In this document: positions 30,981-64,000 of the stretch, piece by piece
How positions within the stretch are numbered: the first letter of the stretch is position 1
How the letters are laid out: each line of letters begins with the position of its first letter
Assembly: GCA_951406725.2 (NCBI GenBank)
Contig: OX597820.1
Location: 104,284,001 to 104,348,000 of the forward strand
DNA: 64,000 nucleotides
Source: Octopus vulgaris
Lineage: Eukaryota
Direction of reading: 5' to 3'
Notes under the pieces: generated by a model
Database searches by the model: none
The model's input: the letters and a program-made list of their open reading frames with translations, nothing else
Told to the model about the DNA's origin: nothing
Made by a program: the position numbers and the translations under genes

Positions 30981-31316
30981 ATATATATATATATTGCTTA
31001 TTTCAGTCAGACTGCGGTCATGCTGGAGTAGCACCTTGGAGGAGTTTTGTAGAATGAATCGCCCTCCACCCCCACCTCGCCAGTACATATTTTTAAAGCC
31101 TGATACTTATTCTATCGGATCTCTTTTGCCGAACTGCTAAGTTACAAGGACTTAAACACTATCTTTTAGTATTAAATTACGACTAGCCACATTGATAAAT
31201 TATGATTTGCAGTTTACCATTTTATGGACTCAGGCACTGATTCTTATGATATTTTCTATAAACTGACAAGGCGAGTTAACTTAACCCTAGGCAACGTATT
31301 AATTCTATCCGAAATC

Positions 31317-41152: not shown

Positions 41153-42145
41153 TGATCCACAAACACTCAAACAAACTGAGTCCTACTGGTCATGATTAAT
41201 GCTTTATTTTACTGAGCCCTCATTTGTCGTTCACAAGAGAATCCCATTTTCTGATTGGCCACAACAATCAACTTCCTAAAAAACAAAATGTAAAAAGACA
41301 CCCTTTAAATCTGTGCCCTAGCTTAGCCGCAGTCAAATGACTGAAACGAGTAAAAGAGTATAAAAATTTATAATACTCGTAAATAAATTGCAATAAAACA
41401 ATAGTGGAATGAAAAGAATATTTTATGCAAAATAAAAAGAATGACAAGATCATTCATAAAAAAAATATTATTATCGTTTTCTAAATTACTTTCACTCTCA
41501 CAAGACTCGAACACACCATCACTTTGTAGATGCGATAGCCGATTCACAAGCATTTGTAAACACACTTGTAGATTTCTTTTTAAATAATAAATCTAGAGTT
41601 GTTTGTTTAGAAGGAGCTTTTTTTCTTTCGCTCCCTATAGATTTCTCGGTAACACACAGAAGCATTTGTTAAGATAATAGAAACTTTTGCACTTCGTTCA
41701 AAATTTGGGTCTTGCTCTTGAAAAATATAACTCGTAAACCCTGTTTCATTATCAATGGTCTGCTAGTGGGCGACCTTCTTAATTATAAGCTAACATCTTG
41801 TTTTAAGTTTTCCTTTACCAAACCTCATGATATTGCTTCTACTAAATCTTGATTTTTATGACTATACCAACTATGATGTATGTCTACTCCCTCAGCCCTA
41901 CCCCTAACAGATACTGCCCTCTGTTCTCTCAGCCTTAGATATACAAGGGATTTGATAAACAAGTCTATAAATTAAAACTGACCCCATAAAAACAAAAAAT
42001 TAGTGACAGGCACAGTCTGTAACAATGTCTATCTTTTTGGAAAATTCAGTAACTTCTAAACTGGAGTGAGACAGCATGTTCTTTGTCTATCTTCTTAACT
42101 ACTTGGAGATTTTAGATATAATTATACTAATGTGTCCATATTTTT

Positions 42146-42229
42146 GTGCAACTGAAGATTGCTCTGCATTTAAAATTGATGTAATGATTGCACTGTTCAA
42201 TTAAATGGAGTGGCATGAAACGATCGTAC
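42146..42229 (+). ncRNA. Hammerhead-like motif with long stem II
   Basis: CTGAAGA (42152-42158), long imperfect hairpin, GAAA-CGA-TC (42217-42225); homolog on the minus strand at 18721-18797. Confidence 0.45.
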
Positions 42230-42432
42230 TGCATTACCTCTGGATATCCTTGTTGCTTATTCGGATGGATAATACCGTACTAAATTCCGGTGCCTCAACT
42301 TAAGTACCATATTCATCAGAATCTAAATTTTTGCTGAACTCATCTACCATACACAAAGTATGTGACCGCGTGTGTACCGTTGGCGATTTTTTTCCCTCTG
42401 TCTTCCCTTCTCTGGATCTTTCCTTCTCCTAT

Positions 42433-42467
42433 GTTTCCGACGAAGAGCTCCGCTCGAAACGTTAAAC
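42433..42467 (+). ncRNA. Minimal hammerhead-ribozyme-like motif (variant core)
   Basis: GTTT-CCGACGA-A-GAGC-tcc-GCTC-GAAA-CG-TT-AAAC. Confidence 0.5.
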
Positions 42468-42559
42468 CCTCCTTCTTTCCTGAGCGTCGAATAATACTAT
42501 ATTTGTTCCACGTCCTCGCGTTGTTGTGTTTTTTTTTGTGCTTTCTTGTTTGGATTAAC

Positions 42560-42628
<69 letters not shown>

Positions 42629-43249
42629 GTAGCAGGACAAGGAGTAGCAGGATGGGTCGAAACGACCGTTGTACCAAATAAAGATTAATACCAAATCCAC
42701 CATCTGGTTGGTTACTTACTCAATTATCAATTATATATATATATGGGGAACAGGTTTTCTTTCATGCAAATTTCATTTAATGCACGACAATGTTTCAATT
42801 TCCTTCATGGTTTTCATATATTCTTACTCGCTTCTAACTGTTAGTTTGTAACAATAAATTTTCTAAATCCCTATCCGACGCGTCAAGATTTTCATTTTTA
42901 TTTTCAATAATTAAATATATTTGGCGTTAGTATTGTTTCTTATATAGTGGTTGGATTAGTAGCGTATGTGCATGTCTTTCAGTTAGTTCCAACTCCAGCT
43001 GCTGCCACCACAACCACGACAAGGACGACTACGATGACCACCACCACCACCACCACTGTACAACAGGTATTGGTTTGTTTACGTCACCGTAACTAAGGAG
43101 TTCGGCAAAGAAGACTTACTTATAAAATAAGTTCTGAAGTCTATTTGTTCGACTAAAGCCTTGAGTGAAACAAGTAAAATTATTTCACCTCAACTCTGAT
43201 CTGGATGCGCATAACAATAATTTACGATTTGTGTAACTCGTTTCATTTA

Positions 43250-43557
43250 TAGTACTACTTGAAAACAGTGGTCCCCGGTGCGCGCTCTCGCGTACTCGCG
43301 CATCCACACCAGCTAGTCATGACTAGTTGATACTTACTTTGTGTTTTTGTGTGTTATTTAAAAAATTATTTACTTTGTATTTTTGTGTTTTATTCACTTT
43401 GTTTAACAAAAGTTATTTACTTTTTGTAAAAAAATTATTTATTTTGTGTTTTATTTACTTTGCTAAGTAGTCATTGTAGGATCGACTAATTACGACTAGC
43501 TAGCACGGGTGCGGGAAAGCGCGTGTGCGCACCGGGACCACTGTTCGCTAGTAGTAC
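43250..43557. mobile_element. MITE with GC-rich imperfect TIRs, ~1.1 kb upstream of the ISYNA1 ATG
   Basis: GTACTACT...AACAGTGGTCCCCGGTGCGC versus GCGCACCGGGACCACTGTT...AGTAGTAC; flanking direct repeat CGTTTCATTTA at 43239-43249 and 43558-43568. Confidence 0.85.
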
Positions 43558-44347
43558 CGTTTCATTTAGTATATTCCGCCCATTAAATGTTTTCAATGAT
43601 CTTCATATTTATTAGTCATTTTGTGTTAATATAAAAACTACACTTCATTTTCATATGTACAATATTTGCTCTAACGTGTCTAAAATATAGAAGCAATGTA
43701 AAAAATAAATAATCCTCTAAGCAACGTGTCAAACAAAAGCATCACTTCCTGTCACGCATTAGCAACTGAAATCGACGAGTCTCCATGCTGTCATTTCCTC
43801 TGCTAGAAATAGCAACCAAATCGCTTATTCATATCGCAGGCAACTGTATTAAAAAATATTCTAGCAGTGACCATGCCGTCTTGATGTCGGTACAGAGGAT
43901 TGTACTATGTAATATATTCTTGTAATGTAATACATTATTTTCTTTTAAAAGAAAACATGGTAAGATTTCAAGGAGATTTGGCTGTTATTTCTAGCAAGCA
44001 GAAACGAACTTGCAGAGAGGATTTACTTTATTTCGGTCTCTCAGTCAAACCCTTTTTAATCAGGGTGGAAGTAAATTAAAATACCACGACAGGAAGTAAG
44101 AGAGAAAAAAAACAATAAACAATGGATAAATAAATAGATAAATAAGTAGATACATGATTAAATAAATAAATAAATAAAACAATTAAATAAATATAACGAC
44201 ACTAAATAAGTACTTCTGATAAAGTCGAGGAAAAATACTGGAAGGGAAGGATTGTCAGCATAATTAATAGACACGCCACTGAAAACATTTTCTCTTCCCT
44301 CTTTTACAAATTAAAAAATTTCTTCTATACTGATATCTGAAAAGAAC

Positions 44348-44500
44348 ATCTGGAAAATTCTTTCCCAAAATTCCATTCTACCTATGTGATAGAGTATTAT
44401 AAATAAAAGAAATAAGCAAATCAATAACAAAATAGCAAGCACTGATCAGTATATAAATTTGCTGCTGAAGCAAACCGGCAGCAGATTCAGCAACAGCGGA
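44348..44500 (+). promoter_or_regulatory. Putative ISYNA1 core promoter: TATA box plus upstream HSE/TonE-like site
   Basis: TATATAAA at 44450-44457, ~170 bp upstream of the ATG. ATCtgGAAaaTTC (44348-44360) overlaps TGGAAAATTCT (44351-44361). Confidence 0.55.
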
Positions 44501-44619
44501 ATCACAAGTAACTGCTTTGCGCAGAGTTTTTCATTCTACCTATCTCTCTCTCTCTATATTATATACCCATCGTGTTGTGGTGTTTGTCAGTCGGTAAAAA
44601 CGTCAAACATTATCGCACC

Positions 44620-44745
44620 ATGTCTGCCAAGCCTTTGAAAGTTAAATCCCCCAATGTCAAATATACAGATGAATATATTGAAGCAGAATATGATTATACG
44701 ACCACAAGAGTTACTGATGATGGGGATTTTCTCATCGCCGAACCA
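44620..44745 (+). CDS. ISYNA1: Inositol-3-phosphate synthase (MIPS), coding exon 1
   Basis: ATG in Kozak-like context (gcaccATG). Encodes MSAKPLKVKSPNVKYTDEYIEAEYDYTTTRV...EP, the typical MIPS N-terminus. 126 nt, phase-0 donor GTACGT at 44746. Confidence 0.92.
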
Positions 44746-44941
44746 GTACGTGTCAAAAAAACGAATTTAACAAATTTTCATTACCTGATGTTAATTAATA
44801 CTTTTTATTAGAGTGTATATATTAAATGTGTATAAATGATATGCATGTACATTTCATATAAATAAATACGTATATGTACATACAGACAGCACACATGTTC
44901 ATATTTGCTTATATGTATGTATGTATATATATATATATATG

Positions 44942-44983
<42 letters not shown>

Positions 44984-45301
44984 CGTGTATAGACGCACGC
45001 ATATAGCTGTTTCCAATTTATTATTTTCATACAACAATGAATATAAATCAAGATAGTGTCCAAATCAAAATTAAATTCCATATTGCTATCGTTACCTTAT
45101 CTGTAATATACATGCATCATTTTATGTTAGTGCGTGTAATATATTTGTGTATATATTGACGTGTACGCGCGCGTGTGGGTGTGTATGTGCATGTATGTGT
45201 ATGTTTATAATTCTCCCTTTAAATCCAGAATATATTTGCTATCACCTTGTATCCATTGTTGTTCATTTGTTTTCTTTTCCCGTTTTCTTCTTTCTCTTCA
45301 G

Positions 45302-45587
45302 TTAACAACTAAATACACTTTCCGAACCGAGCGGAAAGTTCCTCGTCTTGGTGTGATGCTGGTGGGCATCGGAGGCAACAATGGTTCCACTTTGGCGGCA
45401 ACGTTGATAGCAAATAAATGCGGGATGAAATGGCCAACTAAGAAAGGGATGCAAGAATCCAACTTTTATGGATCAATCACCCAATCTAGTACAGTATGTC
45501 TGGGGAACAGTCCTAGAGGAGAAGAAGTTTTTGTACCTTTAAATTATCTACTACCCATGGTAAAACCCGAGAATATCATTTTGGATG
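45302..45587 (+). CDS. ISYNA1: Inositol-3-phosphate synthase (MIPS), coding exon 2
   Basis: Polypyrimidine tract and CAG acceptor ending at 45301, in frame with exon 1. Encodes FRTERKVPRLGVMLVGIGGNNGST (Rossmann GxGGNNG motif), NFYGSITQSSTV and LLPMVKPENIILDG. Phase-1 donor GTGAGT at 45588. The next exon (GWDIS...) was not found in the window. Confidence 0.95.
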
Positions 45588-46274
45588 GTGAGTGCTTTAG
45601 CGCTGCTTTGATGTCAGTCTAACCTTCACACTTCGATTAGTCATTGGCTTTGCTTAGCTGGTTTGCATTTTGTCTAGAAAGGGAGATTTTAAATTGAGTT
45701 ATTTTTGGTTTGTTTAGATTCTTCACTTTCGGAACTAATATTCATTTTCTTCTGGTACTCTGATTCCAAGTTTCTGGAATTTTCTGTTATACATTGATCG
45801 ATCAGTCTCTATATTCGGAAAACATGCATACGATATATCTTTTCTCTTTCTAGATTATGTTTTAAATTGTTACATATTTAAGAATTTATTTATTCTCGTT
45901 CTATTATCAGATTCCAGACAATTTCCTAAGAATTAATGGCATACCTATCGATGTGTGCTGCTTCCAGATATCGGAATTAGTTGTGAAAATTTGTTTTGGA
46001 GTTTCGGATAATTCATGCATGACCACTTCGTTTCCTCGTAACTTTCTGGAAAAATTTTAAAATTCTTTCCTGAAATTTTCAGCTAATACATTTCGGATAA
46101 TATAGATTACAATTATCTCAGAATTTGATGCTGTAAAAGAAATTGTAGGATCGGATAATTCGCACAACCTTGATTTTGTTTTCTCATAAATTTTGATGAA
46201 TTATGCTCCTCCCCAGCAAAATTTTTTCACATCAATTTCCAATTTAATCATAATCCACATCTGAAACGTATCTA

Positions 46275-46610
46275 TGCTTTATCTTTTATTGTTTCAGTCG
46301 TTGGACTGCGGCCATGCTGGGGCACTGCCACGAAGAATTTTAGTCGAACGAATCGACTCCAGTATTTTCTTTTTAAGCCTGGTACATATTCTCTCGGTTC
46401 TCTTTTGCCGAATCGCTAAGTTACGGAAACGTAGGCACGACGACACTGGTTGTCAAGCGGTTTTCCACTATCAAATCCACTCACGAGGCTTTGGCTGACA
46501 ACCCGAGACAATAGCAGAAGACACTTGCACAAAGTGTCACGCAGTGGGACTGAACCCAGAACCACGTAGTTCGGAAGTAAACTACTTACCACATAGCCAC
46601 GCCTGCGCCT
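46275..46610 (-). mobile_element. Internally deleted SINE copy in ISYNA1 intron 2
   Basis: Head and tail of the same family; the central microsatellite region is missing. Confidence 0.85.
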
Positions 46611-48340
46611 ATTGTTGAAAATTTCATTAAAAAATATATGTTTTTCAAATTTATAAGGAAATAAAAATGTCGAGAGGTGGGAATTATGCGAAACGTCATC
46701 CCTCCCTCCAACTTTCTTTTTCACACCAAATTCCGACATAATCGTTATTTACACCATCTAAGACTTATTTGTAGAAAATTTTAGTTAAAAAAAATATGCG
46801 TTTTTGATAAAATTATGAAGTGACAAAGTCGTAGTGACATCTGTAGTTTTGTCGAATTGTTCTTCGTTAACCCTTTGAACTCTGGAATTTTTCATTTCTT
46901 CTAATCACGGTTTTAGGGATATATGAGGCATTTTCTAGAATGATTTATTATTGTTTTTATTATTTTGACAGGGTTTTAGGTTTCCATCTCACTATTATGA
47001 TATTTTGCATTTCTCTTTTGTTTTCTTGGCTTGGTTGTGAGATATGAAGTTCCAAAGACCCTGCACATGGCCTTTGCTGGTCCTATGCTGATACCTTTTA
47101 GAATTCAAAGCATTTCTTTATTTTGTGTAAGATTTTCGGTAAGCTTTTTTTTTTTTATATGTTGGAGTTTGCATAGAATTTTTACAGGTATTTTCTACAA
47201 GCCACCATGGGAGTTTATGCAGTTGCTGGATCTGCTAGAAATGTCAGCCAAGTCTCCCTCAAATCAAACCATAACATCCCCCCCATGCAAGAAAGGGCAT
47301 ATATAGTTCTAGATGAGTCCTGAAGATTTTTATCTTTTTAACTAATATTTAGAAATACAAGAATTCTCCAAAATTGTTATGCTACTTACTGTTTATTGGT
47401 GCATAACTTGCAAAACTTTCCTGGAGATCACCAAATATGACAGACTCTGGAATTTCCTAATATTACACGTGTCTATTCTAGCCACTTATAGCAATCACCA
47501 TAACTGTAAAACTAGAATTTTCCAATATATCTGTTGGCTCTGAAGCTGTCTGTCTTTCACTCTTTGTCTCCATATATGACAGACTCCGGAATTTTCCAGT
47601 CTTACTTGTATAATATAATCTTCCAACATTACTTTTTGTTAGTGTAACTGACATTCTTAGTTCTGACCTGCTACAGCACTCTTCCAATCTTACCTTTTGT
47701 TATCATAACTGATAGACAATAGAATTTTCCACCATATGTGACATCTAGTGTGTTGACCTGTTATAACAATCTTTTTGTTATTCTAAGTAACAAACTCTGG
47801 TGCTTTCTAGTAAAAATTTTATAATATTGTCTACTAGCTTTTGAGTAGTTTCTACTCTTTCTGGCCTTCCGAGGAAGTTTTTCAGTTTAACCTTTTGTCT
47901 TCATAACTGACAGATTCTGGAATTTTCAAATATTATTGATAACTGTTAATTCTGACCAGCCATAACAGTCTTTAACTTTTGTCATTATAACTGACATTCT
48001 GGAACTTTCCGATGTTCCTTTTATGATGTCTGTCAGTGGAGGAATGCTATAGCAGTTTTCCAACATTATATTTGTCACTATAACCGACACTCTGGAATTT
48101 TCTTCTATTTCTTAGGTCTTTTAGATTTTCTTGCAGACCAGTCTTTCAGCTTTACTTTTTGTCATCAAAAGTGACAAACTCTGGAATTTTCCAATACTAT
48201 TATGTTGGCTTCCCATAACAGTCTTTATTTTTGTTCAACATTTCTGATAAACTCTGGAATTTTACAATAATATAATACATCTGTTAGTTATAATACTTTT
48301 TATCTCTATAACTGGCAGACTCTAAAATTCTCCAATATTA

Positions 48341-48505
48341 AAGAGTAATGAATGACCATGGGAATTGCACCTAGAAAGTTACCCTCCAAGGTACAAGTCT
48401 GGGCAAGTTTGTTTATAGAAGACCAGCAGTCACCCATGTGTACCAGCCTTCCCTCACCGTGCCACTAATGTTATCTAAGGGAAAGGCAAGGCTGATACAG
48501 CTGTA
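48341..48505 (-). mobile_element. 5'-truncated SINE inserted in the satellite
   Basis: Reverse complement of about 34615-34765; TSD TCTCCAATATTA at 48329-48340 and 48506-48517. Confidence 0.88.
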
Positions 48506-48632
48506 TCTCCAATATTATATATCTGTTAGTTCTGGCCTATTATAGCAATCTTTATATTTTGGTGCTAAAACTAACAAACTCTGGAATGTTTCAGTATAAG
48601 ATGTCCATTAGCTCCGGAACAATCATTACACT

Positions 48633-48962
48633 GTTGTGTCTGTGGAGAGTCATTTTCTTTTTGTGTCTTATTATACAACACACTCACCGGTAAAATTTCC
48701 ACTTTTTTCTTATTTTTATTGTCCTAAAATTTTCATTGTGTCTTGCAACCTTTTCAATAGTTTTGACTCTAAACTATTGAAAAGGTTGCAAGACACAACA
48801 AAAATTTTAGGACAATAAAAATAAGAAAAAAAGTGGAAATTTTACCAGTGAGTGTGTTAAATAATAAGGCACAGAAAGAAAATGACTCTCCCCAGACACA
48901 ACAGAATATGCTTCAACACACGAACTCATATAAAGAATCTTGCAAACCAAATCCAAAAACAA
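48633..48962. mobile_element. Palindromic insertion with 12-bp TSD inside the satellite
   Basis: Arms at about 48632-48763 and 48771-48903; AATCATTACACT at 48621-48632 and 48963-48974. Confidence 0.85.
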
Positions 48963-51829
48963 AATCATTACACTTTGTCACTATAATTAAGATTCTGGAA
49001 TTTTTCAGCATTACTTATGTCATATAGTTCGGGTCTACAATAGCAGTCTTCCAAGCTTACATTTTGTCATACACTTGCACTTTGCTAAATGATACATTAG
49101 TTCTGTCCTTTGTCACCATGTCTGACAGACTTTGGAATTTTCCAGTATTACTTTGATGATGCCTATCTGTTACTTCTCTGTAGCCGAGCAGTCTTTCAAC
49201 ATACCTTTCTGTCACCATATGTGACAACACGCTGGAATTTTCCAATATATGATGTCTTCTATTTTAGTCTGCCATATAGCTGTCTTCAGATTTGTCAAGT
49301 TTGAAATTTTCTGTTATCACATTTCTCGTAGTTCTGACTTGTTACAGCAGCCTTTATTTTATGTCACCTGTCACGATAACTTAAAAACTTAGGAATTTTT
49401 CAGTTAATGCAAAATATCTACTAGTGCCAGAGCAGTCTTCATCCTCTGTTATCATAAGTAACAGACCCTAGAATTTTCTAGTACTACTTACGCAATGTCT
49501 GTTAGTTCTAGCCCACCTTAGCAGTCTTTAACTTTTGTCACAGTATCTGACAGATCTTGGAACTTTCCAGTTGTCCTTTTATAATAGTTATTTGTTCAGA
49601 CAGCGGTCTTCCAACATTACATTTGTCACTACAGTTGGAATATCTTCTAGTATTACTTATGTCTTTTAGTTCTCTATGCTGAAGCAGTATTCCAATATTA
49701 CAATTTTCTATGTTTATTTTTTTTGGCCTACCATAGCATTCTTTAACTTTGGTCAACTTAACCGACATACTCTAGCGTTTTCCAATAATATGTCTGTTAG
49801 CTTTGGAGCTGTCCTTTTGTCACTGTAACTGAAGCACTTTGGAATTTTCCTATAATATATTTCTATTAGTTCTGGTCTATTATAGCAGTCTTCCGGTATT
49901 ATCTTTTGTCATCATAAATGAAATGTTTTGGAAAGTTTTCATCTTTTGCTAAAGCAGTCTTTCACTTTTAGCACCAAAACTGACAAACTTGGGAATTTTC
50001 TAATATCATAAGTTGCTGATTAGCTCTGGAACTTGTCTTTATCCTTTGGAATATTCCAGTATTATTCACATGATGTCTGATAATTCTTGTTTGCTAGAGT
50101 AGTCTTTAATTTTGTTACCAACTGAGAAACTCTGGAATTTTCCAGTATTTCTTATATACGATAATTTAGATCTGCTGTAGCAGTCTTTCAGCCCACCTTT
50201 TGTCACAGAACTGGCAGACTCTGGAACTTTCCTGTATTATATTTCTGTTCTGACCTTTTATAGCAGTCATACCTTTTGTCATCATAACTAGCAGACTCTA
50301 GAATTTTCCAACATTATATAGCTGCTCGGGCTTGCTATAACAGTCACCTATTATTATCTTTGGTTTCTGGAAATGACACTGAAGTTTTCCAATATATTTT
50401 TATTAATTCTTCATCTTTTGTTAAAGCAGTTGCTGATTTTTGGCACCAAAAATGACTCTAAAATTTTCCAGTTTATAATATTCTTCTTACCTCTGGATCT
50501 ATTTTTGCTCTTTGTCATAACTGACAGATTCTAGAATGTTCCAGTGTTATATATTGTCTCTTAGTTCTGTCCTACAATCTTTTAAAATTACCTTTGTCAC
50601 AAACTTCCAATAATATATTTCTGTTAGTTCTAGCCTGTTAAAGTAGTCTGTTAATATTATCTTTTGTCACCATAAATGACACACTCTGGAACTTTCCAAT
50701 ATTTTGTTACTGCAGTCTAGCTTTTGGCAAAAACGCTGACAAATGTCTATTAGCTCACATAATGCCTGACAATTCTTGTGTTATAGTAGACTTTACCTTT
50801 TGTTATTAACTGAGAAACTTTGGAATTTTTCTGTATTTCTTATTTGATAAATTCTGGCCTGCTGCAGGAGTCTTCCATCCTACCTTTTGTCACAGAATTA
50901 ACAGATGCTTGAATTCTCCAATATGATATTTCTGTTAGTTCTAACCTGTTATTGCAGTCTTAGCTTTTTGTTACTACAAATGACAGACTCTGGAATTTTT
51001 CAGCATTTTATGTCCGTTTTGACCTGTTATAGCAGTTGTCCAGTATTGCCACTTGTCATTATAAATGACACATTAAGGAATTTTCCAGTATTATAATAGT
51101 TTTCTTAGCTCTGGATCTGTTTTTACTCTTTGTCATAGCTGACAGATTCTAGAATGTTCCAGTGTTATATATTTTGTCTCTTGGTTCTGCCAAATAATCT
51201 TCCAAAATTACCTTAATCACAATAACTGACATACTCTGGAATTTTCCAATAATATATTTCTCTTAGTTCTAGCCTGTCAATGCAGTCTTTTATTATCTTT
51301 TGTCACCATAAATGACACACTCCGGAACTTTCCAGTATTATATTTCTGTTTGTTCTGGATATGTTTATCTTTTGTTGTAGCAATCTTTAACTTTTGGCAC
51401 CAAAACTAACAAACTCAGGAATTTTCCAACATTATAAGACGCTTGTTAGCTTTGGATCTTGCTTTTTCCCTTCAACACTATAACTAACAGACTGTGAAAT
51501 ATTCCAGTGTTTATTAATGATGTCTGATAATTCTTGTATGATAATTCTTTTTTTACCAAAACTGAGAAACTCTGGATTTTTCCAGTATTTCATAAATGAT
51601 GTCTGGTGGTTCTAGTCTATGATAGTAGTTTTCTGGCTTTACCTTTCGTCACAGAATTAATAGATTCTTGAATTCTCCAATATTATATTTCTGTTAGTTC
51701 TAGCTTGTTATAACAGTCTATGCCTTATGTCACTGTAACTGAGTGACATCTATTACTTAGATGTTCCCTACTATAGCTGTCTATCAACGTTGCTTATTAG
51801 ACAATGGTTTGATTACCTTAACTTCAGCT

Positions 51830-52690
51830 GCTGGTTCTGGAATTTTCCAGTCAATCTATATGATATGCAGTGTATGAAATAAGGTTTTGCCTACCACAAT
51901 ACATTCTAAAATTTTGTATTAATTTATTGAGATATAAGCTTCGATTACTTCAGCAAATTCTTCTAGAATGTTCCAGTTTTTCTGCATGCCATTTAGAATA
52001 TGAAATTTTGCTTACCATAAATACATTATTTTGGAATGGAATTTTTCATCAATTCAATGCTACTTAAGAGATATAAAGGATTTGTCTAGTTTAGCTTTAG
52101 CAGATTCTGGAATTTTCCAATGAAATAGATATGTCTTTCTTCAATATATGCTAATTCAGTTTTCCATCAATTCTTTACTGCTTATGAAAGGTTTTGTTTG
52201 TTTTAACAAGTTCTTGTGGAATTTTCCGATTGTTCTAAAGGGCTCACAAAATATGAAATATATTTTTCCTTTTAACATATTCTGGAATTTTCCATCAATT
52301 CAATACAACTGATATAAAATTCAAGCATTTAATTATTTTAGCTTCTACAAATTGGAATTTTCCAACAGTTGAAAACAGTTTTTTACTGCAATACTTTTTT
52401 CTAGAATTTTCTACCAATTCAATGCAGCTTTTGAGATTATCAGAATTTTTCATTACTTTAGCTTCTGGGGTTTTCCAATTATTCTCTATGATATTTAGAA
52501 TATGAAATAGTTTTGCTTACCATACATAATGCATTGTTGTAGAATTCCTATCAATTCAGTGCAGCTTATGAGATATAAAAGACTTTTGCTTACTTTAACA
52601 GGTTTTCTAGAGTTTTCCAGTTGGTTTATGTGATTTGCAGGATGTGAAGTAGTTTTGCTTTGCATTCTTCTGGAATTCTTTTCATTTCAA
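51830..52690. repeat. Second degenerate repeat (type B) sharing the TTCTGGAATTTTCC core
   Basis: About 13 cores embedded in different flanks (e.g. ...ttccatcaattcaatgc, ...atatgaaatagttttgctt). Confidence 0.75.
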
Positions 52691-53005
52691 TTTCATCTCA
52701 AGAATTTATTTTATTCTAACAAAAAAAAAAAAGTCTCGTAGATTGTAGGTTTTTCATCATTCTTATGCAATTTTAGAGTTGTTTTATGGTTTATCTAATT
52801 CTTCCTGAATATACCTAAATGGTTCTCAAATTGGTCTCTTGTTTGTAAAGATATAGAATCTTAATTTATGCTATATAATGCTGAATGTATTTTTAGGCAC
52901 TTCGATCTTCAATAGCAGTACTTGTCTCTCGGTCCATCTATTGTAAATTTATTGAACTGTCTTACTTAGTTTTGATTGCCCCATTCCAAACTCAGTCTCC
53001 TATAA

Positions 53006-53225
53006 CTCTTTAGTGTTCAGATTATTCTGTCAACTGTGATGTTTGTTTATTTAAAATGGTTTGAATTAATCATGTATTATCTTGTAGTTTAGAGATTTCA
53101 GTGATGTGATTTTTTAGTTTTAGAACAACATGGTAGGGCTGAGGTGAGAGGCGAGATCTGGTCAGTTTCAATATAAAACAGGTTAAATATTTTGGTCAGA
53201 TATGGCTGGTTTGAATGCTAAAGGG
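53006..53225. mobile_element. piggyBac-like MITE
   Basis: Ends CTCTTTAGTGTTCA and TGAATGCTAAAGGG; flanks ATAA and TTAA. Confidence 0.65.
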
Positions 53226-56200
53226 TTAACTCTGACAAACAAATGAACTTGACTTTATGTACAATCTCCCTCCCTTTTACCCCTTTCATGTTTTCCCCTT
53301 ATTCAAATAAGGCTCTAACTAGAAGTTATGTTAACGAGATTTGAGGTCCAGGTAAGTGTGCAATTAGGTATTGTATTTTCTCTCCTGTGTGTATCAAATC
53401 TCTCATTAGACTTCAGAAAAGAGCACTCTTGAAAGAGGCAGATGAAGTTACTAGTCCCTGGAATAGTAAAGGGTAAACTTGGCAAAGACTAAGGAATTTC
53501 TGTTTTTGAGAGATGACCTAAAAGAAATTAAATTGGTAAAAATAAAAAAAGAAATTGAAAATATTTCTGGTATGATGTTGGTGCATGAAAGTGAATGACT
53601 TTGTTTGAAGAATGAAATAAATGTGAATCAGAGTGAGATATAGAGAATTTATGCATGAATAACATGGATGTTAAACTCAAATAGTTGAATGAACTAAAGA
53701 AATCTAGATTGGGATAGACCAATGAAATTATTACAGTTTAGGGAAGAAATTAAAAGAAAAGAAGGGAAAAGAAAATGCAATTGAGGAAAGGAAATCTTGC
53801 AAGCCATTTAGAATGTAATTCTGTCAGTGTTTAATTTGCTGACTTCTGCAGTCCAAAATGCTTTATTAATTCAAATGAGCTATTTCAGTGTTAGAATCAA
53901 ATCTACTCAAGATATGTTGTTAGAATATCTCACAAACATAATTTAACAGATTGCTATTGGTTGATGATTCCAAATAATTTTTCTAATCAATGTAAGATTT
54001 TCTCTGAAAATAGCTTGGGAGATTTTTTTTTTTTATCTTGGATTTTTTTCCATAGTGATAGTTAAGTTTTCATTGAAAAACAAAACTGGGAGCAGGATGG
54101 GCCTTATTCTGGATTGTTTTAAAATAAGTTGAATGGTAGAATCATTAGTGTTGGGCAAAATACCTTTTGATATTTAGTTCTTAGTGATACTTGTGCTTTA
54201 AAGACAGATGAAAGTATAAACCCTAGTGCCTGTTATGAGGATATTTCTACCCTTTGTATTATTATTAACTTTGAATGGCTTGAAGAGGGAATAATACCAC
54301 ACAGATCCTCTAATTAATGGAATATCTAGGATGTTGTCTGTCATCCTATGTAACACAAAGCTGATAGAAGAAAACTTAAATCTGAGTTCTTCTCAAAGTG
54401 ACTGATACTACATCATAGTGGAGGGGGCAGTGTAAAATTTTATTTGGATATTAGGAACAAAGGGGGCAGTAGGGATGAGAGGGAGCAACAGATAAATCTG
54501 TATTGTCTTTTTAGTTTTTGACTCTTATCTAAAAAAAAAAAAAATTAATTGTAATATGATAAGCCTGCTTGTTGGACACAATCACAACAACCTCATCGAC
54601 AATAATAAACTTTAATGTGTATATATAAATAAGCAAAGCTGTATGTATATATATATATATATATAGTACAAAGTAAGATAGGGGTTATGGGTGTAACCCA
54701 CCATGGGATATCATCCAATATACTGTTGGTAAAGTACCCAGATTCTAAATACATAAATGTTTTTAATTGCAATGCAATTAACTCATTTATTGTATTAAAC
54801 GGGTGAAGGTAAAGAAATATTTTTTACTGTAAATTTATAATACAAATAAGAAAATGGAGAAACCAATTTAGTTTGATCATCAACTTTCGGTATCTTATAT
54901 CTATTGAATTATAAGATATATATGTATGCTATTGATGTTCTCATTTTGTTAAATGAATAAATAATCCAGCATTTTAATATCCGAAAGTTGATGAACAAAC
55001 CAAATTTGTTTCTCCATTTTCTTATTTGTATTATATATATATATATATATGTAACATTTTCTCTGAAAATACCTTTAGAGATTTTGTTTTTATTGTGGAT
55101 TTTTTCCATAAGTAATAGTTAAGTTTTTATTGAAAAACAAAACTGGGTGTAGGATGGGCCTTATTCTGGATTGTTCTAAAATTAGTAGGATGGTGCTATA
55201 TATGGTGAGTAGCCACCTATGTCAAACTAGTACTGAGAACTAAATTACTCTGGTCTGATATTACAAATTTGTACATCAAAAATGGTGGTGGTGAGAGGCA
55301 TTGATAATGTCTTAATAAAGGATAAAGTTTAAGAGGCACTGCTCTGAATATTAATAATAATACAGCTGAAACAATGTAAAGCTATGAATGAAATATTGAG
55401 TGTAAAAATCTAATTTGAGACTGGTGGCGGTTAGTAAATGCTGACTTCAATTTGTGATGTTCGTACATGGAAAGGTTGGAAATTTTTCATATGTAACTTG
55501 TAAGGATTGTATGTGAATTTTTAAAAGGAAAAATTTGTTTGATTCTGGGTTTGAGTTGGACCAAAATTTTATCAATAACAAGACATTGTCATGATTGGGG
55601 GTCAATTGCAATTCACCCGAGTGTGAACACAATCATCTATATTATATAAATATACATACAATACACACACATGTGTGTGTGTGGTGTGTTTATATATATA
55701 TATATATGTTTGTATGTATAAGATATGTAAATTATGTAGAATAGGTAATGTATAAATCCTTTTGTCTATATGATAGAAGGAACTATTACATTTCAGTATA
55801 TACTTTAAAATAATATAATACCAAAAAAAGTATGCAATGTTTTCTGTATGAAAAGTGTCTTTTGTATATAGTCAGGTCATTTTTGTTGATACCAAACAGT
55901 AAACTTGATTACAAGTTCAGTTCCTGTCACAATAGGTTTTGAGTTATGACAAGTTTGTTCTCGTTTGGTATTTTTATATTTATATTGGGTTGAATTTTGT
56001 TTTATTGCAAAAAAGCAAGATGTTAGCATAGTATTGTTTAAGATTGACATACATATCCTTGAGAATTTGATTTGGTAGCTTTCTATTTAAAACAAATTCT
56101 AGACTCGACTTGTTTGTTATCCTGTTGAGAAAACAGCTGTGTACGTTTAGAAGCAGGTTGTATCAGAGGATAGTTCTTCTCTATATGGAGAAGAGTTTGT

Positions 56201-57495
56201 TGGGAAATAATTATGCTATACATATTCTGTTGTTTTGGACAGTGGCAAAAATATTTTGTGTGTGTGTTTGGATGTACAAACAAGATTTACTAGCTTCACT
56301 GAAATATATTTATACACACACAGTAAAAAAGAATTTTGTTAAAGCAATTATCCCCACATGGTGAGTTGTAATGCAAAAATATATAATAACAGAAGGAAAT
56401 GCACACAGTTTACATAGATTTAATAAATTTAAAGGGTAGAGTATTTGTGATAGTCAACCAGTTTTGCATTTTGCTAATCATGACATTGAAATTATTGCAA
56501 TTTTGTATTTTCTTAAGAAGTTTTTAGTCCATGTTCTTGTAAATGAATTGGCATGTAGAAAAATCTAAGAGGAAGTGTATATAAGTGAGTGCACAAATGA
56601 AAAAAGAGGTACTCGGTAGCAGTCATGTATATTTTTCAATAAGTTTCACTCAGCACTGGATGGCTTAAAGTTTTGTGGGCTTATAAGATAGATCAATCTC
56701 ATTAGATATCTGATGAGATGGTTTTGTCCAACGATCCAATGCAACTTGGAGCTGAGTCAACTTCTCATTAAAATATATACTTGGAGCTGGGTCAACCTCT
56801 CATTAACATATATACATATACTTTATAACTTTTATGTAACTTTACATCTCTATATATAATCATGCAATAGTTGTAAAACATATAGAAATATATTTTACAA
56901 ATTAGAAACATTATCCAATATAGAAGACAAGATACAAGTTGATAGTTTACCCAGTTTTGCCCTTGGTGACACTTGAAGTAGTCTGTCAAATTTTGATATA
57001 CCATTAAAAAAAAATATTCTTAAAGTATATTTTGTTTTGTTATAAAGCAATGAAATTGCTTTGACAGAAAAAGTCAAATTTAAGACAGATATTATCATTT
57101 TTTAAACACTTGAGGTTGACATCTAGCAGCTATTGGTTGTTTCCAAGAGTCAGATAATTGCACAAGCTGATATTTAGTGAATTACATACTCTGAAGATAA
57201 TCCCTCCTCAAGTGGCATTAATGTAATTTTTCTAACATTCAAAGTTGAATTTTCATTTTTGCTTATGACTAACATATACCGGAGTTGTCTGTTCAAAATA
57301 ACTATCTATTTATACAAGTGAATTTATTCATATAATTTAACATCTTTTATTTCAGTTTATCATAATTTAATAATTTCTTTCGTCATTCTAAATGACTATT
57401 ACTTTATTGTGTGAGATATGGAGCAATTCACATGCCTACACTTTTTTTTTTAGCTAAGTAGGGAGTATTTAAGAATAAAAAAAAAAATGTGGGCA

Positions 57496-57701
57496 ACACA
57501 CCGGGCGAAGTGCTTGGGAGTATTTCATCTACCATTACATTCTGAGTTCAAATTCCGCCAAGGTCAACTTTGTTTTTCATCCTTTTGGGATCGATTAAAT
57601 AAATACTAGTTATGCACTGGGGTCGATGTAACCGACTTAATCCCTTTGTCTGTCCTTGTTTGTCTCCTCTATGTTTAGCCCCCTGTGGGCAATAAAGAAA
57701 T
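57496..57701 (+). mobile_element. Monomeric copy of the SINE that forms the 31.3-32.3 kb array
   Basis: Collinear with the array unit; ends ...aataaagaaata. Confidence 0.9.
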
Positions 57702-58749
57702 AAAATTTGGGGATTAGGGAAATTTAGCTCAATCTTTTGAAAAAAAAAGAATGTATTATGGATTTTTTAAAAATCTAAAGGTACTAGTCGAACTCCTGGT
57801 GTGAAAATGAAAATAATGTTTCAAACAGTCTGATATATTGATCAAGGAGTATAATTTTTAATTGTTCAGACAAGTTAGAAAACAATAGCTACATATCTAT
57901 ATGAAAAGAAACAATTCAGGGATCATTTGGTTAATTCGTTTTCATAGTGAAATTAATAGTTAGTGACTGTGTGCCCAAGATAGTATTGTCCTTTCACAAG
58001 ATCATTTATTGTCATGTGTAATATAGAAAGTGCCATCAAATTAGTTGTTTTCAGTTATGGCTAAATTTTTTGAAGATTAAAGACCTGATGAATGATCTCC
58101 CTTCTACGACTCAACGAGAAAGTAGCAACGTTTATGTTTTATGGTCAACGTCTGGATGTCATTAAATGCATTTTATGTTATTTTAAAATGTAGTTCAAAT
58201 TTACAAGTTTACCTTTTGCATTAGTATTTTTGTAGGGTTTGTAACTTGTTAAATATTATTAAATGTCTCATTTTGACGTGAAAATAGTAAATAAATCTTA
58301 AATCAAATCATTTCAAAGTATTGATCATAGAAACTCCATACAAATTATTTAAAAATAAAACCTGTTGATGAAATATATAATTTTTAATTCAATATTGCTA
58401 CTTTAAAACTAAAAAAAATACCAAGAGATTAAAATCGAAAGCCAACTACTGGTGTTGTAACAGCTTTCGTGTGACTCCTGCAGTCCATCATCAACAGGTG
58501 TCAACTGGAGAATGACTAGACCATGGAAAAAACCCAGTATTTCTACTATCTCAGAAATGCTTTTAGAGGAAAGAGATAATACTGAGCTGTAGGAGAGGGA
58601 GCGCTCCATCTTGTTAGCTGATGGTCTTTGAAAGGCTTACTATTATAACAAATTTTAACTAATTACCAATAAATACTCTCAAAGTGAAATCCATATAAGA
58701 TGTTAGTAATATTTTTCACAAAACCAAAAGCTTTATTATTGTTGGTTTC

Positions 58750-59900
58750 ATATCAAATAATACTTCATCTTATGCAGACATAGTATATCTGGACAAAAGT
58801 ATATTCATGAAAATATACTTTTTGTGCATAATGAGAAATATGCTCAAAAGGTTGGATTTTTTTTCATGTACATTTAACTGCATATGTCTTACAATGATAA
58901 CTGATATTAATCTTTGATATAGCTTCAGTTATTACTATCGTTGTCTTTGTGTTGCGTTTTTTTATTGTGCAGTCATTGCAAGTTATTGTCCTTGATATGC
59001 CTATAAGTCTGTCTTTGTTTCTGTAACCCATGGAGAGTTTTGTAGGCGTTGAGTAAGAAGACCCAAATTTGCTATAAGACAAACCCCACTTAATGATAAA
59101 GATGCCAGGAAAATTTTTCAATTTTGGTATCCAAACAGAAACAATGGCAAAACTTTGGTAATTTGAAATCAAAATAATCTTGATGTAAAAGAAAAGAAAC
59201 CTATAGTTTTTTCAGCACGTAGTATTGTGGCTGTCATGAAATTCCAGACATGTTTTTCCTTGTATTCATTGAAGATGTCACATACCTTCAGTTAAAAGGA
59301 GAGATGTTGTTAGCTGACATGCTGAAACAGCTGATGAATTGAAATTACTGGAACCCAAGCAACATGGCAACAAATCAATAAATGACTCTTTAGGAATAAA
59401 TTCACAAGCATCATTTTGTAAATGGAATGAAGTTGATGGAAAACTCTGAGCAAGAGAGAATTAAACTGTCATAATTGTGGTTAAAGACACAGGAAAAAGT
59501 GTCTAACATTCAAATTAAAGTGACCTAAATATGGAAAGCTACTTCACTTTACTAAATATTATTGCTCAGGTTCTATCTATGGCATCAATGAATTTTTATA
59601 CAAAGACATGCTCAATGTGCCTTCATGCTTAATATCAACAATGTACATCTTGATTAATGTTTTAAATATCTACTATAAATTGAACAACGTTCCAATTAGA
59701 ATGAAAATAGGTAGTGGTGCATCTTGTTCAATTATCCTTTATTCCTATATTGATACGATCATTTCAGCATTATTATTCATCAGTTAAAAATTTAGATAAC
59801 TTGCTGTTCAGCACTGAAGATGAAGAACTCCTTGCTAATTTTTCATGGAGGAATTAATGTCACAGATTTTCCTTTGACTTCAGATTAAATGGAATAGGGC
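58750..59900 (+). mobile_element. Highly decayed Gypsy-like gag-protease remnant
   Basis: At ~59677-59736 the frame reads KLNNVPIRMKIGSGASCSII, resembling a retropepsin DTGASxS motif. Boundaries are guesses. Confidence 0.4.
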
Positions 59901-61048
59901 ATTTTATACTGAGGTACATAACAACTATTGACAATATTTTTGAAAGGTCATATAGCTAGTGTTTTATGGGGTAGAAGAATAAGCAACATAAGCCAATTTC
60001 ACTGCTGAAATCATTAACAGAGACCCCTAGTAATCAGCTATTCTTATTGGAAAAGGTTATTCTATGGATACTGAACTTATTTTGAAAATCATTAGTGGGA
60101 ATATTATCCTATAGCAGTCATTAGCCAGATTTAATAAGTCAACGAAACTAGTTTAATATTGAGTGTAAGGGTTATGCCATTAATTTGGTGCATTGAATAA
60201 TTGGGACGATTTCTATTTGGATGTAACTTGTTCAATCATGGACCAGCAACTTTTAAAAACTATTTTCAGTGATCTGTCACAGGGAACTTCATAAAAAGAA
60301 TTGTTTGTTTTACTGTAAAATAGGTTTTAGGTAAATTAAGACTGCATATTTCCTAACTTGACTTGGATTTGGAACCTACACTGGTTTTCTGTTCACTTCA
60401 CTGATTAGCTAAAATTCATGTGAACACACAAACACAACTGAGTTGGTTAACAATCACTTGAATCATACAGGGAGATAATGAAGATATCTTTGCTACAGTT
60501 GTGGGGATTGAGAGTTGTGGGCCTTGATAAGCCATTGCGTTAATTTGTCTTTCTGCAAACAGTGAAGAATTCTAAGAATTTATAAAGGTGTATGTGCAAT
60601 CTTTCCACTTATACTATTAAAACAAAACAGTTTTAGAATTAGTTTGAGTGTCATGCAAATTATAATACTGATACTTCAGGTAGTGATGTGTTCAGGTGAT
60701 ATGTTAATTCAATTAATGATTGCTTGGGTATCTTTCCTTTATCTGGTTTTCTGATTCAATGAATACAACCAATTTAGGTATCGTCAGTTTCAAATCTTAG
60801 TAATTAAATTGGTAATTAGGGAATATCTAGAAAATTGCAGCTTGTTCTTGTAGCTACTTTTTTTATAATTAAAAAAAAATTTTTTAAGTGTCACTAATTG
60901 ATATTTTCTGTTTTTAATGCATTGGATAATTCTATTACTAATATTTTAAAATATAAAGTGTTTTGTGTGTGGAATGTCTTTACATTTTGGAAGCAGCTTG
61001 TTTAAAACAGATGAAAGAGAAATAAATTAATATTTCTGACTGTGTGTG

Positions 61049-61081
<33 letters not shown>

Positions 61082-64000
61082 GGTGAAGGCAGAATTAGTA
61101 GAGATTTGCACCTTTGTTATTTCTGAATTCAAATATAGCACTGATAGATTTTCTCTTTCTTACAACCCTTCATATTTTTGGGGTCAGTAAAATATATCTA
61201 GGGTTGGTATTGACTGTACCCTTGAAGTCCAAGTCCTAGTATAGCCAAAGTCCTCTGACTAGAATCAGTAAACGACTAAATAAATATCTGTAAATATTAA
61301 GTGTAAAATGTGATTAGTTAAGTTCAAAAAGTTTACATATTTGGGAAATATTTATGAATATGTAAAATACAGAAACCATACAAAATCTTCTGTAAGTATG
61401 AAAAGCTAAGCCATCGGAAAATGCTGGTAAGACATTTCATTTTGAGTAATTCAAACGATGGATTAGGACACAATTTTATGTGTAGTAAATGTTTTATGGC
61501 ACACTTCCAGAGAAAACAGCAGATTGTATGGTTGTTCTTACAAATAAAGTTTCTTTGTTTCTGAAGTGTTGGTTCATTCCTTGCTCAATGCTGTATCTTG
61601 TCCACAAAGAATGCAGCTAAGCTGTAAAACCATCTGCTCTGCCCTTGTAGCAATTTATTTTGCATGCCGTGTGCAAAAAAAAAAAAAAATTCTTTTGCTA
61701 TTTTGAATGTTTGATTCCCAGGGAATCAACAAGAACAGAATTGCTACACAAGATCAAGCTGTATGTCAGTCACCTACTGACGTGAGTTTATATTTTGCAG
61801 TTTCTTATGTCTTATTTCAAGTCTAGCTATTTTTATTTCACTGTTCAAATAGTTAAAATGCTGTGATTTTAAACTCTATGAACAAGAATACTCACACACA
61901 TTCAGATGCACTCGTGCTTTCAGACACACACACACACATTCAGATGCACATGGACGTACTCACAAACATACAAATGCAATCATGTTTGATAGTTAGGAAA
62001 TCTGTTACTCATTCAATAGATAAATTCTGAAAATATTCTGTAGTATATTTGATCTTCAATTCTAGTAAAGACTGTTTGTGTATTACAGAATAATGATATT
62101 AATAATAATTAACTCTTCTGATAATCATATTCAATCTTGAAGGGTTTTCAGCAATTATATTTAATGAAATAGAACATTAATTCTGAATAAAAACTGATTT
62201 CTATTTTATCAGTAACCTTTTCTGCTATACATATTGGTTATGTAAGCTGTTGACAAAGTATTGTTTATGCTGAAGTCAATTTGATTGACTTATAGATCAA
62301 AACTTTCCAGCTATGGCCACCTCTACTATTTTTCGGGCATAACATACTTTGGACAGCTCTGTACAATGTCTTTTTTTAAGACAATAGAGTATATAATTTG
62401 AGGGTGATTTGGTTGCTGTTTCTAACATGTTGAATAAGTACGGATACAGAACTTATGAAACAGTTATCCTATATTTTCTTTAATATTTCAGACCAGAAAT
62501 AAAATTATATATTTTCTATTGGTTGAATTAAAACTTTTGTCAATTTTCCCATGAAAACCTTGTTTTTAATCAATTCTTCACTAAAACACAAGTTTCCTTT
62601 TTATACAGTAATCTATTCACCTAGTTTACCTTGGCATTTCATGATCTGTGTGAGTTAAATATTGTTCACCTATTTGAAAACCAGTCCATTTGTAACACTA
62701 GACAGAGTAGCAACACTTCAAATTAAGGATACTTTTCCAAAAGTAAATAATCTATTTTTTTGGAATGTGTTTCAATATCAGAAAACCAATGTGTATCTTA
62801 TGTATTTCAAGTGGTCTACTCAAAGTATACAATTTGATAGATGCATTTGTATTGCATCATAAATGTTCTGGACTTATGGCGTAGAATAAACCATTTTGCA
62901 GCTGCACTGTGTTGGTGAAGTATTTGAAAAATTATGGGACTTGGGCCTTATCTAACTCCAGCAATCAAAACTCTAAGGCCATAACTATAGCTATTGTCCT
63001 GTATTCATTCAAATCTTCCCTACTTGCTAGCTTTTCTTTTTAATTTTTACTTCAGTGCAACTTATATTATTGGAGTTTTCTTAAACTCTTAACTTAAATG
63101 AAGGTAAGTGTTAAATGCAATTAATTTAACCTGCTTTATTGATGATTATCTTGATGATTATCTTGTTTTTAATGCTTTTTTAAAGACCATTTTATTGAAT
63201 GACTTGATCTCCAAATGTGCCTACTTATTAACAAAGTTAAAGAATCTTGTTTTTTTTTTCCCCCTACTTATTGAATTCAAACCGAGAAGTAGGTTTTCAT
63301 TTTGGCTATGAAATAACGTCTGTAGCCAGGCTGTTTTTTCATTCAAGATTCTTTCCAGCTTGCGATGTCTTCAAATTACCTCCCTTGCTTCATACCTTCT
63401 TTTTAACAACTTTACTATACCACGCCGCACTCACTACAAAGTTGATTTCATAACATTATCCTAACCATCAGAATTTTTCTGCTCCTCACATCATGTGTCA
63501 TTTTACACTAAATGTTAGCATATGAGTACTATTGTTGCCTGCTACATAGCTATGATGGGCAAGGTGCTCAAAATCTAAGATAAATTCTTATCAGATATAC
63601 TGCAGTAGAAGAGTTAACATACACGATTAGTTTTATTTGTGTGAATTTAGATCTATAATTACAAAACATATTTTGGATAGAAATTGAAAGTAATCACTTC
63701 TAGTATGAAATGGTTTCATATGTTGTATGGAAAGTACATTTGTGGTGACTATGACCTCTGTTGGCTTCCTATGTGATGTGTACTTATATACGATTTGTGA
63801 GAAATTTAACCAACTAGTATTTTACTCCTGTTAGCAGTGAAGCTTTATGTTTGTGTGTATGCTTAATTGAATGGAATATTTTTTAAACTCAGTCATTAGC
63901 TCTTGCTTTAGGGCAGAACAGCTAACAAGGATAATGACTGAAAACAGATAAAGAAACACGTAATCTTATGGATAACTAAATAGGCAAGAGTTTATAGTTT

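Follow-up and report, generated by a model that had tools for sequence, protein, structure and literature searches.

A two-part tandem array of heat-shock-element-like cores in intron 2 of the octopus inositol synthase gene, possibly an amplified HSF-type site cluster

ISYNA1 and the tandem array in its second intron

We analysed a 64,000-nucleotide window of the Octopus vulgaris genome (assembly GCA_951406725.2, contig OX597820.1, positions 104,284,001 to 104,348,000 of the forward strand), which holds the 5' end of ISYNA1, the gene for inositol-3-phosphate synthase (MIPS), and, within its second intron, a 5-kb array of short units whose common core resembles the heat-shock element (HSE). A first-pass annotation of the same window had described this array as one satellite and had proposed that it serves as a stress enhancer bound by HSF and/or NFAT5. 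Coordinates are those of the window unless a genomic position is given.

A PF07994 profile search of the 2.8-Gb genome gave four exon matches, all at one locus, indicating a single ISYNA1. Coding exon 1 (44620..44745, plus strand) matches the N-terminus of the O. bimaculoides protein, and exon 2 (45302..45587, plus strand; PF07994 E 3e-28) matches the same protein and is followed by a GT donor at 45588. Intron 2 occupies 45588..64000 on the plus strand and continues beyond the window to exon 3 at C7:104350579, ~21.0 kb altogether; exon 3 is 100% identical to an O. vulgaris record named inositol-3-phosphate synthase 1-A-like and 96% identical to O. bimaculoides. Because intron 2 runs from 45588, the array begins ~1.8 kb into it, as the first-pass annotation had placed it. 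The source's O. vulgaris ISYNA1 model has 385 aa, begins inside exon 3 and omits exons 1 and 2, which are intact in the window (44620-45587) and present in the O. bimaculoides and Argonauta models; the short model stems either from an alternative start or from the 21-kb intron having interrupted the annotation. Upstream of the gene, a TATA-like box, TATATAAA (44450..44457, plus strand), suggests the position of the core promoter, the transcription start site being unmapped, and ~90 bp before this box lies an HSE-like site, ATCTGGAAAATTC (44348..44360, plus strand), with one mismatch to the perfect HSE TTCnnGAAnnTTC and with a match to the tonicity-responsive enhancer (TonE) consensus at 44351.

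On the plus strand of 47365-52690, the 15-mer core was matched 7, 23, 40, 49 and 59 times at 0, 1, 2, 3 and 4 mismatches, respectively, whereas Markov shuffles (200 runs, at most three mismatches) averaged 1.1 matches and never exceeded 4. The counts agree well with the ~55-60 cores counted by hand in the first pass. Nine perfect TTCnnGAAnnTTC sites were found at exactly the positions first reported (47915, 47997, 50529, 51147, 51835, 51961, 52105, 52280 and 52399; mean 0.1 and maximum 1 in 200 Markov shuffles), and a tenth lies outside the array at 45772. Cores and perfect HSEs alike are far above shuffled sequence.

The cores, ~50-60 in total, are distributed over two adjacent, old tandem sub-arrays with head-to-tail units. 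Sub-array 1 (47369..51750, plus strand) contains ~45 diverged copies of an 86-bp monomer with the core CTCTGGAATTTTCCAR and four of the perfect HSEs (47915, 47997, 50529 and 51147). Its monomers are 65-80% alike, their 86-bp consensus was derived from a circular profile, and irregular higher-order duplications are seen at offsets of ~600-690 and 1400. Because the monomers are so diverged, the Tandem Repeats Finder program reports one 2-copy stretch only and misses the array as a whole. Sub-array 2 (51815..52715, plus strand) is made of seven dimeric units of 110-145 bp and carries the other five perfect HSEs (51835, 51961, 52105, 52280 and 52399). The two sub-arrays share the same core in the same orientation but have different flanks: alignment of the sub-array 2 flanks with the sub-array 1 monomer was no better than with shuffles (p 0.43, 0.93), and homology of sub-array 2 or of the upstream DNA to the sub-array 1 flanks was rejected because the alignments were not significant. 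Sub-array 1 is further interrupted by a high-copy short interspersed element (SINE)-like insertion (48353..48465) and by a high-copy foldback element (48631..48904) that resembles a miniature inverted-repeat transposable element, with arms ~92% complementary.

This anatomy replaces the single satellite of the earlier description with two sub-arrays that have unalignable flanks and SINE-like and foldback interruptions. The spacing of ~80-90 bp given there fits the 86-bp consensus monomer but not the actual intervals, which are irregular (median 74 between 64 loose anchors). Two details of the core also had to be revised, since the first pentamer, given as TTC, is CTC in the majority of sub-array 1 (T in 11/42), and the supposedly free 'nn' positions keep TT in 82-85%. 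A protein-coding repeat (zinc finger or leucine-rich repeat) was rejected because unit lengths are not divisible by 3 and open reading frames (ORFs) in the array reach at most 84 aa. An Rfam scan of the array returned no family at the gathering score, with two weak C/D matches (E 0.5 and 2.2), and a snoRNA/miRNA cluster or a structured RNA family was rejected on this result.

The monomer is specific to this locus. Genome-wide, a 24-mer at three mismatches gave 15 matches, of which 13 lie in the array and the other two are singletons, and the array was single-copy by depth in four DNA runs with four organism labels (80% likeness). Consistent with this, a 601-bp array query matched this locus only, in a genome search that skips common words, and in 99 other 10-kb stretches a monomer profile matched the core at most. 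A monomer that is dispersed or carried by a transposable element (TE) is ruled out by the depth, the 24-mer matches and the profile, and mapping the satellite genome-wide, another check raised in the first pass, placed the monomer uniquely at ISYNA1. A Helitron-borne repeat was rejected on the single-copy depth of the array body and the absence of the monomer beyond its core from the 99 stretches, no motif search for Helitron termini having been made. The array is therefore a single-locus minisatellite-type array and not a multi-locus or large-block satellite.

In all four DNA runs, the array is present and collinear, with single-nucleotide polymorphisms (SNPs) and small indels; these runs differ from the window by ~0-4% per piece. 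A polymorphic repeated insert just 5' of the array (47198..47368) is absent from the contigs of runs X4 and X7, a 25-bp insertion allele occurs at 47814, and indel polymorphisms of 2-25 bp are found within the array. The 47198-47368 insert, the 47814 insertion and a SNP at 50219 are natural variants that can be used for allele-specific tests.

The motif in unique DNA and the conservation of the core

Word ranking of the non-tandem DNA between promoter and array gave TCTGGAA and TCTAGAA as the top 7-mers. After TE stretches had been dropped (one site had lain in a dispersed foldback element and one in the polymorphic insert), 1522 bp of TE-free unique DNA contained eight distinct TCTRGAA sites compared with 0.35 expected; the maximum among 431 background tiles of 1.5 kb was 4, and the density of sites over the other 13.8 kb of intron 2 is 0.29 per kb. 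In the unique DNA, 7-mers of the monomer core were found 27 times versus 3.7 expected, a count whose p value is inflated by overlapping words, whereas non-core 7-mers were found 18 times versus 17.2. It is the motif, not the repeat unit, that marks the ISYNA1 5' end. Five TCTRGAA/TTCYAGA sites, including the perfect HSE at 45772, form a non-tandem cluster at 45673..45969, with single-copy depth in the bin 45503-45903, and two further single TCTRGAA sites lie in unique DNA at 46881..46940. Also outside the array is an old dispersed foldback element (46027..46832; arms ~46027-46193 and ~46647-46832), into which a high-copy SINE-like sequence has inserted (~46280-46616).

Within the array, the same motif is the best-kept block. 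In a leave-block-out alignment, GAATTTTCCA showed an identity of 0.88 or 0.86, compared with 0.59-0.78 for blocks lying off it or over its 3' half and 0.79-0.82 for a block overlapping its 5' half. The core was still the best kept when masked from the alignment, which rules out an alignment artefact. A slow mutational context does not explain its conservation either (ratio 1.75 versus 2.6-3.7, with trinucleotide context rates taken from SINE-like copies of five repeat families in 307 kb). Since the word ranking of unique DNA names the core without recourse to the array, a test on pre-specified columns applies, and with the columns so named in advance the neutral simulations gave p <=0.002 and none of 31 full-pipeline runs reached the observed value. 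Tree rates relative to the average were 0.60 for GAA, 0.33 for TTC, 0.83 for the inner nn and 0.9 for the following CA. The per-position comparison proposed in the first pass thus came out as HSF binding would have it in one respect, GAA and TTC changing more slowly than the inner nn, but not in others, the first pentamer not being slowed and the raw nn being 82-85% kept. Taken together, these results suggest selection on the cores.

An HSF-type cluster and its alternatives

The genome offers its own standard for an HSE. A cluster of intronless HSP70 genes at C18:43.28-43.36 Mb comprises eight copies, of which one is interrupted by an internal stop, and the consensus element of their promoters is GAAACTTCTGGAACGTTCCAGAA; perfect three-pentamer matches occur in 7/8 copies, and some copies carry an ATC variant, as the ISYNA1 promoter site does. 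In one HSP70 promoter inspected, the HSE sits ~90 bp before a TATA-like run. The array core closely resembles this HSP70 HSE, flanking bases included. For yeast, the Hsf1 chromatin immunoprecipitation consensus is reported as TTCTAGAAnnTTCTAGAA (PMC6340206), which likewise speaks for HSF-type sites. The promoters of the HSP70 cluster vary in HSE quality, and a foldback TE family present in ISYNA1 intron 2 recurs in its units. HSF itself is presumed to be encoded, on general grounds and from the HSP70 elements.

Judged by motif, the cores are ambiguous. GAAnnTTC is kept in 24/41 sub-array 1 cores (0.24 expected per core at flank rates), TTTCCA in 18/41, and the TonE and kB patterns are matched by 17/41 and 15/41, respectively, GGRRNNYYCC being the kB consensus. 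The canonical HSE of at least three contiguous alternating nGAAn pentamers is present in nine cores and at 45772 and absent from the CTC majority form; in sub-array 2 the TTC form predominates and perfect HSEs lie near the consensus. The array by itself cannot separate HSF from Rel-homology factors; the unique 5' DNA can, as far as its motif content goes.

We put first, tentatively and with something close to an even chance, the reading that the 8-kb cluster of promoter sites and array is an HSF-type site cluster amplified by tandem duplication. It starts from the anatomy and locus specificity of the array, the core as its best-kept block, the enrichment in unique DNA and the likeness to the HSP70 HSE. 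The ISYNA1 5' end would carry a homotypic cluster of HSF-type sites, which tandem duplication of one site-bearing segment multiplied. The amplified segment would have contained the dyad TCTRGAAnnTTCC, clustered also in the unique promoter-to-array DNA, with the sites probably coming first and the amplification later, and weak, redundant selection may have kept the cores while the flanks drifted. The factor would be HSF, for which the best candidate sites are 44348, 45772, sub-array 2 and a few sites of sub-array 1, most sub-array 1 cores being putative low-affinity sites of two and a half pentamers. Bound HSF could affect the promoter, which lies 3-8 kb upstream, so that heat or proteotoxic stress would increase transcription of inositol synthase and octopus ISYNA1 would be stress-induced. 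The array is better supported than a motif coincidence, and its core is not unique in this genome. If functional, it would show in a single-copy, mappable and polymorphic case how tandem duplication, and not transposition, can build an enhancer, and would do so in a cephalopod of commercial importance at the gene that limits the rate of inositol synthesis; if neutral, it cautions that HSE/NFAT/kB-like dyads are common in octopus repeats. Whether binding sites are what preserves old intronic arrays can be tested directly on it.

A neutral origin is entirely possible, if on balance doubtful. A local duplication would have caught one dyad, perhaps a real 5' site, and unequal exchange would have expanded it into an inert array, its cores kept by chance, by microhomology-anchored exchange at the quasi-palindromic core or by local conversion, with the promoter-proximal sites a separate matter. 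A series of observations weighs against the HSF-type cluster, and several of them favour such a passenger directly. Once any window may be best, the excess conservation of the core is borderline: the permutation test gave p 0.071 and 0.076 (37/59 rows, each with at least 55 matched columns), tree simulations gave p 0.127 and 0.095, and 2/31 full-pipeline neutral simulations reached the observed value. SNPs are not depleted in the array cores (5/28 of those listed versus 2.8 expected, among 40 of 403 SNP rows), and two haplotypes disrupt one of the cores in different ways (48264/48265). The earlier claim that the core is better conserved than the rest of the unit therefore holds for the best-kept block (0.86-0.88) but is borderline in the any-window comparisons (p ~0.07-0.13) and gains no support from the SNPs. 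One perfect HSE is polymorphic, the SNP at 50219 creating it in three of four runs; perfect HSEs are made and lost by transitions, and TE insertions and 2-25-bp indel polymorphisms are tolerated in the array.

The form of the sites adds to these objections. Three-pentamer HSEs are present in just 4/41 sub-array 1 cores, and the first pentamer there is not conserved (relative rate 0.87-0.98). C21>T, the change by which the HSE becomes complete, occurs in 11/42, near the 0.21 of other C columns, and the perfect HSEs of sub-array 1 look like drift products because this T is at the generic C>T level. In the A cores of sub-array 2, GAA is broken in 2/7 while TTCC is invariant (7/7). Cores ~80 bp apart are too distant for the cooperativity of contiguous trimers. 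For the unique DNA, the region was picked after inspection, one of the eight sites is a perfect three-pentamer HSE, and the sites, spaced 50-100 bp apart, could be decayed oldest monomers. In yeast, just 15/82 promoter TTCnnGAAnnTTC motifs were occupied (PMC6340206), so motif presence predicts binding poorly. A literature search, supplementary tables excluded, found no account of the array or of how stress regulates ISYNA1 in cephalopods.

The core is also common in dispersed repeats: a core-gap-core pattern gave 587 genome matches versus 7 for a control. ORFs within ~10-25 kb of the sampled arrays gave no stress-gene Pfam match, 150 of 383 and 150 of 332 filtered candidates having been examined; this is a weak test that misses short exons and distant genes. 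Dispersal of the repeat with no link to stress genes, which the first-pass annotation had named as evidence against its proposal, is thus partly observed: the monomer is unique to ISYNA1, and the core is dispersed, with no stress gene near the sampled arrays. Scattered short satellites are moreover reported as normal in molluscs (PMC11136912). What a passenger accounts for less readily is that the best-kept block is the very motif singled out by the unique DNA of the same gene, and that the core and its orientation are common to two sub-arrays whose flanks cannot be aligned; arm-to-arm covariation, the mark of palindrome correction, is not evident by eye in the monomer alignment.

It is improbable that a Rel-homology factor, either NFAT5 at minus-strand TGGAAA or Rel/NF-kB at GGAATTTTCC, couples inositol synthesis here to salinity or immune signals. 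The reverse strand does fit the TonE consensus as first noted, TGGAAANNYNY having 25 matches in the region, 24 of them on the minus strand, and the TTTCCA and GGRRNNYYCC counts in sub-array 1 and the invariant TTCC of the sub-array 2 A cores lean the same way. The genome contains an NFAT5 orthologue (exon at C6:94.95 Mb, best PDB match 1imh, E 7e-16) and two Rel-family genes, and tilapia MIPS carries an osmolality/salinity-responsive enhancer (OSRE1) with a TGGAAAA core (PMC7374092). However, the OSRE1 consensus DDKGGAAWWDWWYNNRB had no match in 40001-52700, which spans the array and its upstream DNA, and the unique 5' DNA is enriched in TCTRGAA but not in TGGAAA (2 and 1 TGGAAA per 700 bp). 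The kB-breaking G25>A is found in 10/42, and C34/A35 change at 0.9 of the average rate. No motif clusters were found at two loci (60 kb each) that we take to be IMPA-like from PF00459 and characteristic motifs. At C20:18.14-18.16 Mb, two IMPA-like exons appear duplicated ~9.65 kb apart with near-identical scores, either a tandem partial duplication or an assembly artefact. A TEAD-type factor is a further candidate for the cluster. Free amino acids are described as the main invertebrate osmolytes (PMC12645818), and some cephalopods as stenohaline osmoconformers in passages that do not mention inositol (PMC4585917). In Drosophila montana, Inos has been connected with cold acclimation (PMC5003386), so a temperature link is plausible, if hypothetical, for cephalopods. 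Of the HSF/NFAT5 platform originally proposed, the heat-shock side is in keeping with the HSP70-HSE likeness and the 5' motif enrichment; the salinity/NFAT5 arm finds no counterpart in the OSRE1 scan or at the IMPA-like loci.

Very improbable, finally, is a role other than that of an enhancer, in which the array, like human satellite III (HSat3) or dispersed TCAST1, would serve as a factor sink, be transcribed into non-coding RNA on stress or act as a silencing patch. In its favour, many dispersed arrays share the core, and one 433-nt segment has a sense RNA whose folding beats that of shuffled versions (z -3.2). Against it, ~55 mostly imperfect sites in 5 kb are tiny beside megabase-sized HSat3, other loci carry denser perfect HSE runs, such a fold score is expected from palindromic repeats and the Rfam scan gave no family at its gathering score.

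The core elsewhere in the genome and comparison with known systems

The dispersed core-pattern matches belong mostly to a GC-richer minisatellite family, with arrays at 19/20 sampled places, mostly among TE remnants. These GGAACTTTCC minisatellites measure 0.15-2.8 kb, have 21/53/73-bp units and mostly lack shared flanks (examples at C1:1.63, C1:141.30, C1:201.78 and C2:1.14 Mb, and many more). Some apparently lie inside long interspersed element sequence, their observed/expected CpG ranges from 0 to 1.2, and their units contain words that we take to be kB-like and STAT-like. A galactokinase exon lies ~6 kb from the C2:1.14 Mb minisatellite, PIF1-helicase (Helitron-like) fragments lie 3-5 kb from one at C5:134.15 Mb, and the fragments near that at C1:201.78 Mb are presumably rRNA-like. 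An origin of the ISYNA1 array from this family was rejected, as seven subfamily profiles match the core alone (best E 0.12) and the best blast match has E 0.04; an apparent match at 46032-46079 belongs to another foldback TE. The core further occurs in unrelated arrays on C30, C27 and C26. Perfect-HSE pairs have 78 matches genome-wide versus 53 for a control, some of them in the dispersed element with continuous HSE runs described below.

Denser HSE runs were seen at other loci. Arrays with 19, 15 and 14 perfect three-pentamer HSEs lie at C4:133.277, C15:39.55 and C7:8.10 Mb, the unit of the first closely resembling the HSP70 element. At C30:2.634 Mb, a 70-bp tandem array has a perfect HSE in most units (7 matches); an ORF nearby with a Cys/His cluster has no Pfam match and presumably resembles HFM1/MER3. 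A young 78-bp satellite at C27:12.087-12.090 Mb holds 37 copies of a GGAATTTTCCA core with unrelated flanks. A dispersed element, 70-87% alike, with inverted flanking segments and at least 28 copies by one 31-mer, contains HSEs that run on without a break in 10-bp phase over 70-130 bp and, in most of the copies inspected, a TATAAATA-like box ~20 bp further on (C5:139.43, C16:29.58, C18:47.50, C20:43.01, C23:22.88, C26:6.58 and C7:32.01 Mb). By its layout it looks like a portable heat-shock promoter and is possibly more interesting than the ISYNA1 array. A broader proposal, that inositol synthesis was recruited into the heat-shock regulon through a 50-60-site intronic enhancer as one case of genome-wide HSE scattering by minisatellites and a TATA-bearing HSE transposon, we consider rather unlikely. 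Elsewhere in the window, a SINE-like sequence is tandemly repeated at 31316-32235 (184 bp x5, 93% matches), and a 138-bp stretch is perfectly duplicated at 4560-4838.

Among known systems, the enhancers of tilapia OSRE1 type (MIPS, IMPA1.1 and GS intron 1) share with the octopus locus the pathway gene, TGGAAAA-containing sites, an intronic example and a copy-number effect; tilapia MIPS is salinity-induced, and copy-number-dependent activity was shown for GS-OSRE1 (PMC7374092). Those elements are few, non-repetitive and near the transcription start site, unlike the octopus array, which has no OSRE1 match and no clustered counterpart at the IMPA-like loci. With human HSat3, whose transcription is driven by both HSF1 and TonEBP according to a review (PMC10813801), a point in common is a tandem unit that resembles HSF and NFAT5 sites alike. 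HSat3 is pericentromeric, very large, pentamer-based and stress-transcribed, whereas the octopus array is 5 kb long, euchromatic, intronic and built of 86-bp units. As in Tribolium TCAST1 and the scattered satellites of oysters, a short array lies in or near a gene of an invertebrate genome; in octopus, by contrast, the monomer has no copies elsewhere and only the core is common to other repeats.

The closest precedent for the proposed recruitment is in Caenorhabditis, where Helitron-borne HSE clusters recruit HSF-1 and accompany heat induction of nearby genes (PMC6927752). Repeat-scattered dense HSE clusters have so far been described mainly in that genus, and the other bilaterians covered by Garrigues et al. 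2019, which may or may not include a cephalopod, are reported to have no high-density HSE clusters (PMC6927752). In both systems, repeats have placed many HSE-like sites beside a host gene, with recruitment to the heat-shock response proposed. The octopus array differs in being single-locus, non-mobile and intronic, 3-8 kb downstream of the start, with sites ~80 bp apart that are mostly imperfect; the worm effect was reported for HSEs within 2.5 kb upstream and not for intronic ones (PMC6927752), a further point against the HSF-type cluster. A further comparison is with the octopus HSP70 promoter. Its HSEs mostly have 3-5 contiguous pentamers, unlike most array cores, which have two plus an imperfect third, but the cores share with it the letters TTCTGGAA-nn-TTCCA, and the ISYNA1 promoter site likewise stands ~90 bp from a TATA-like box.

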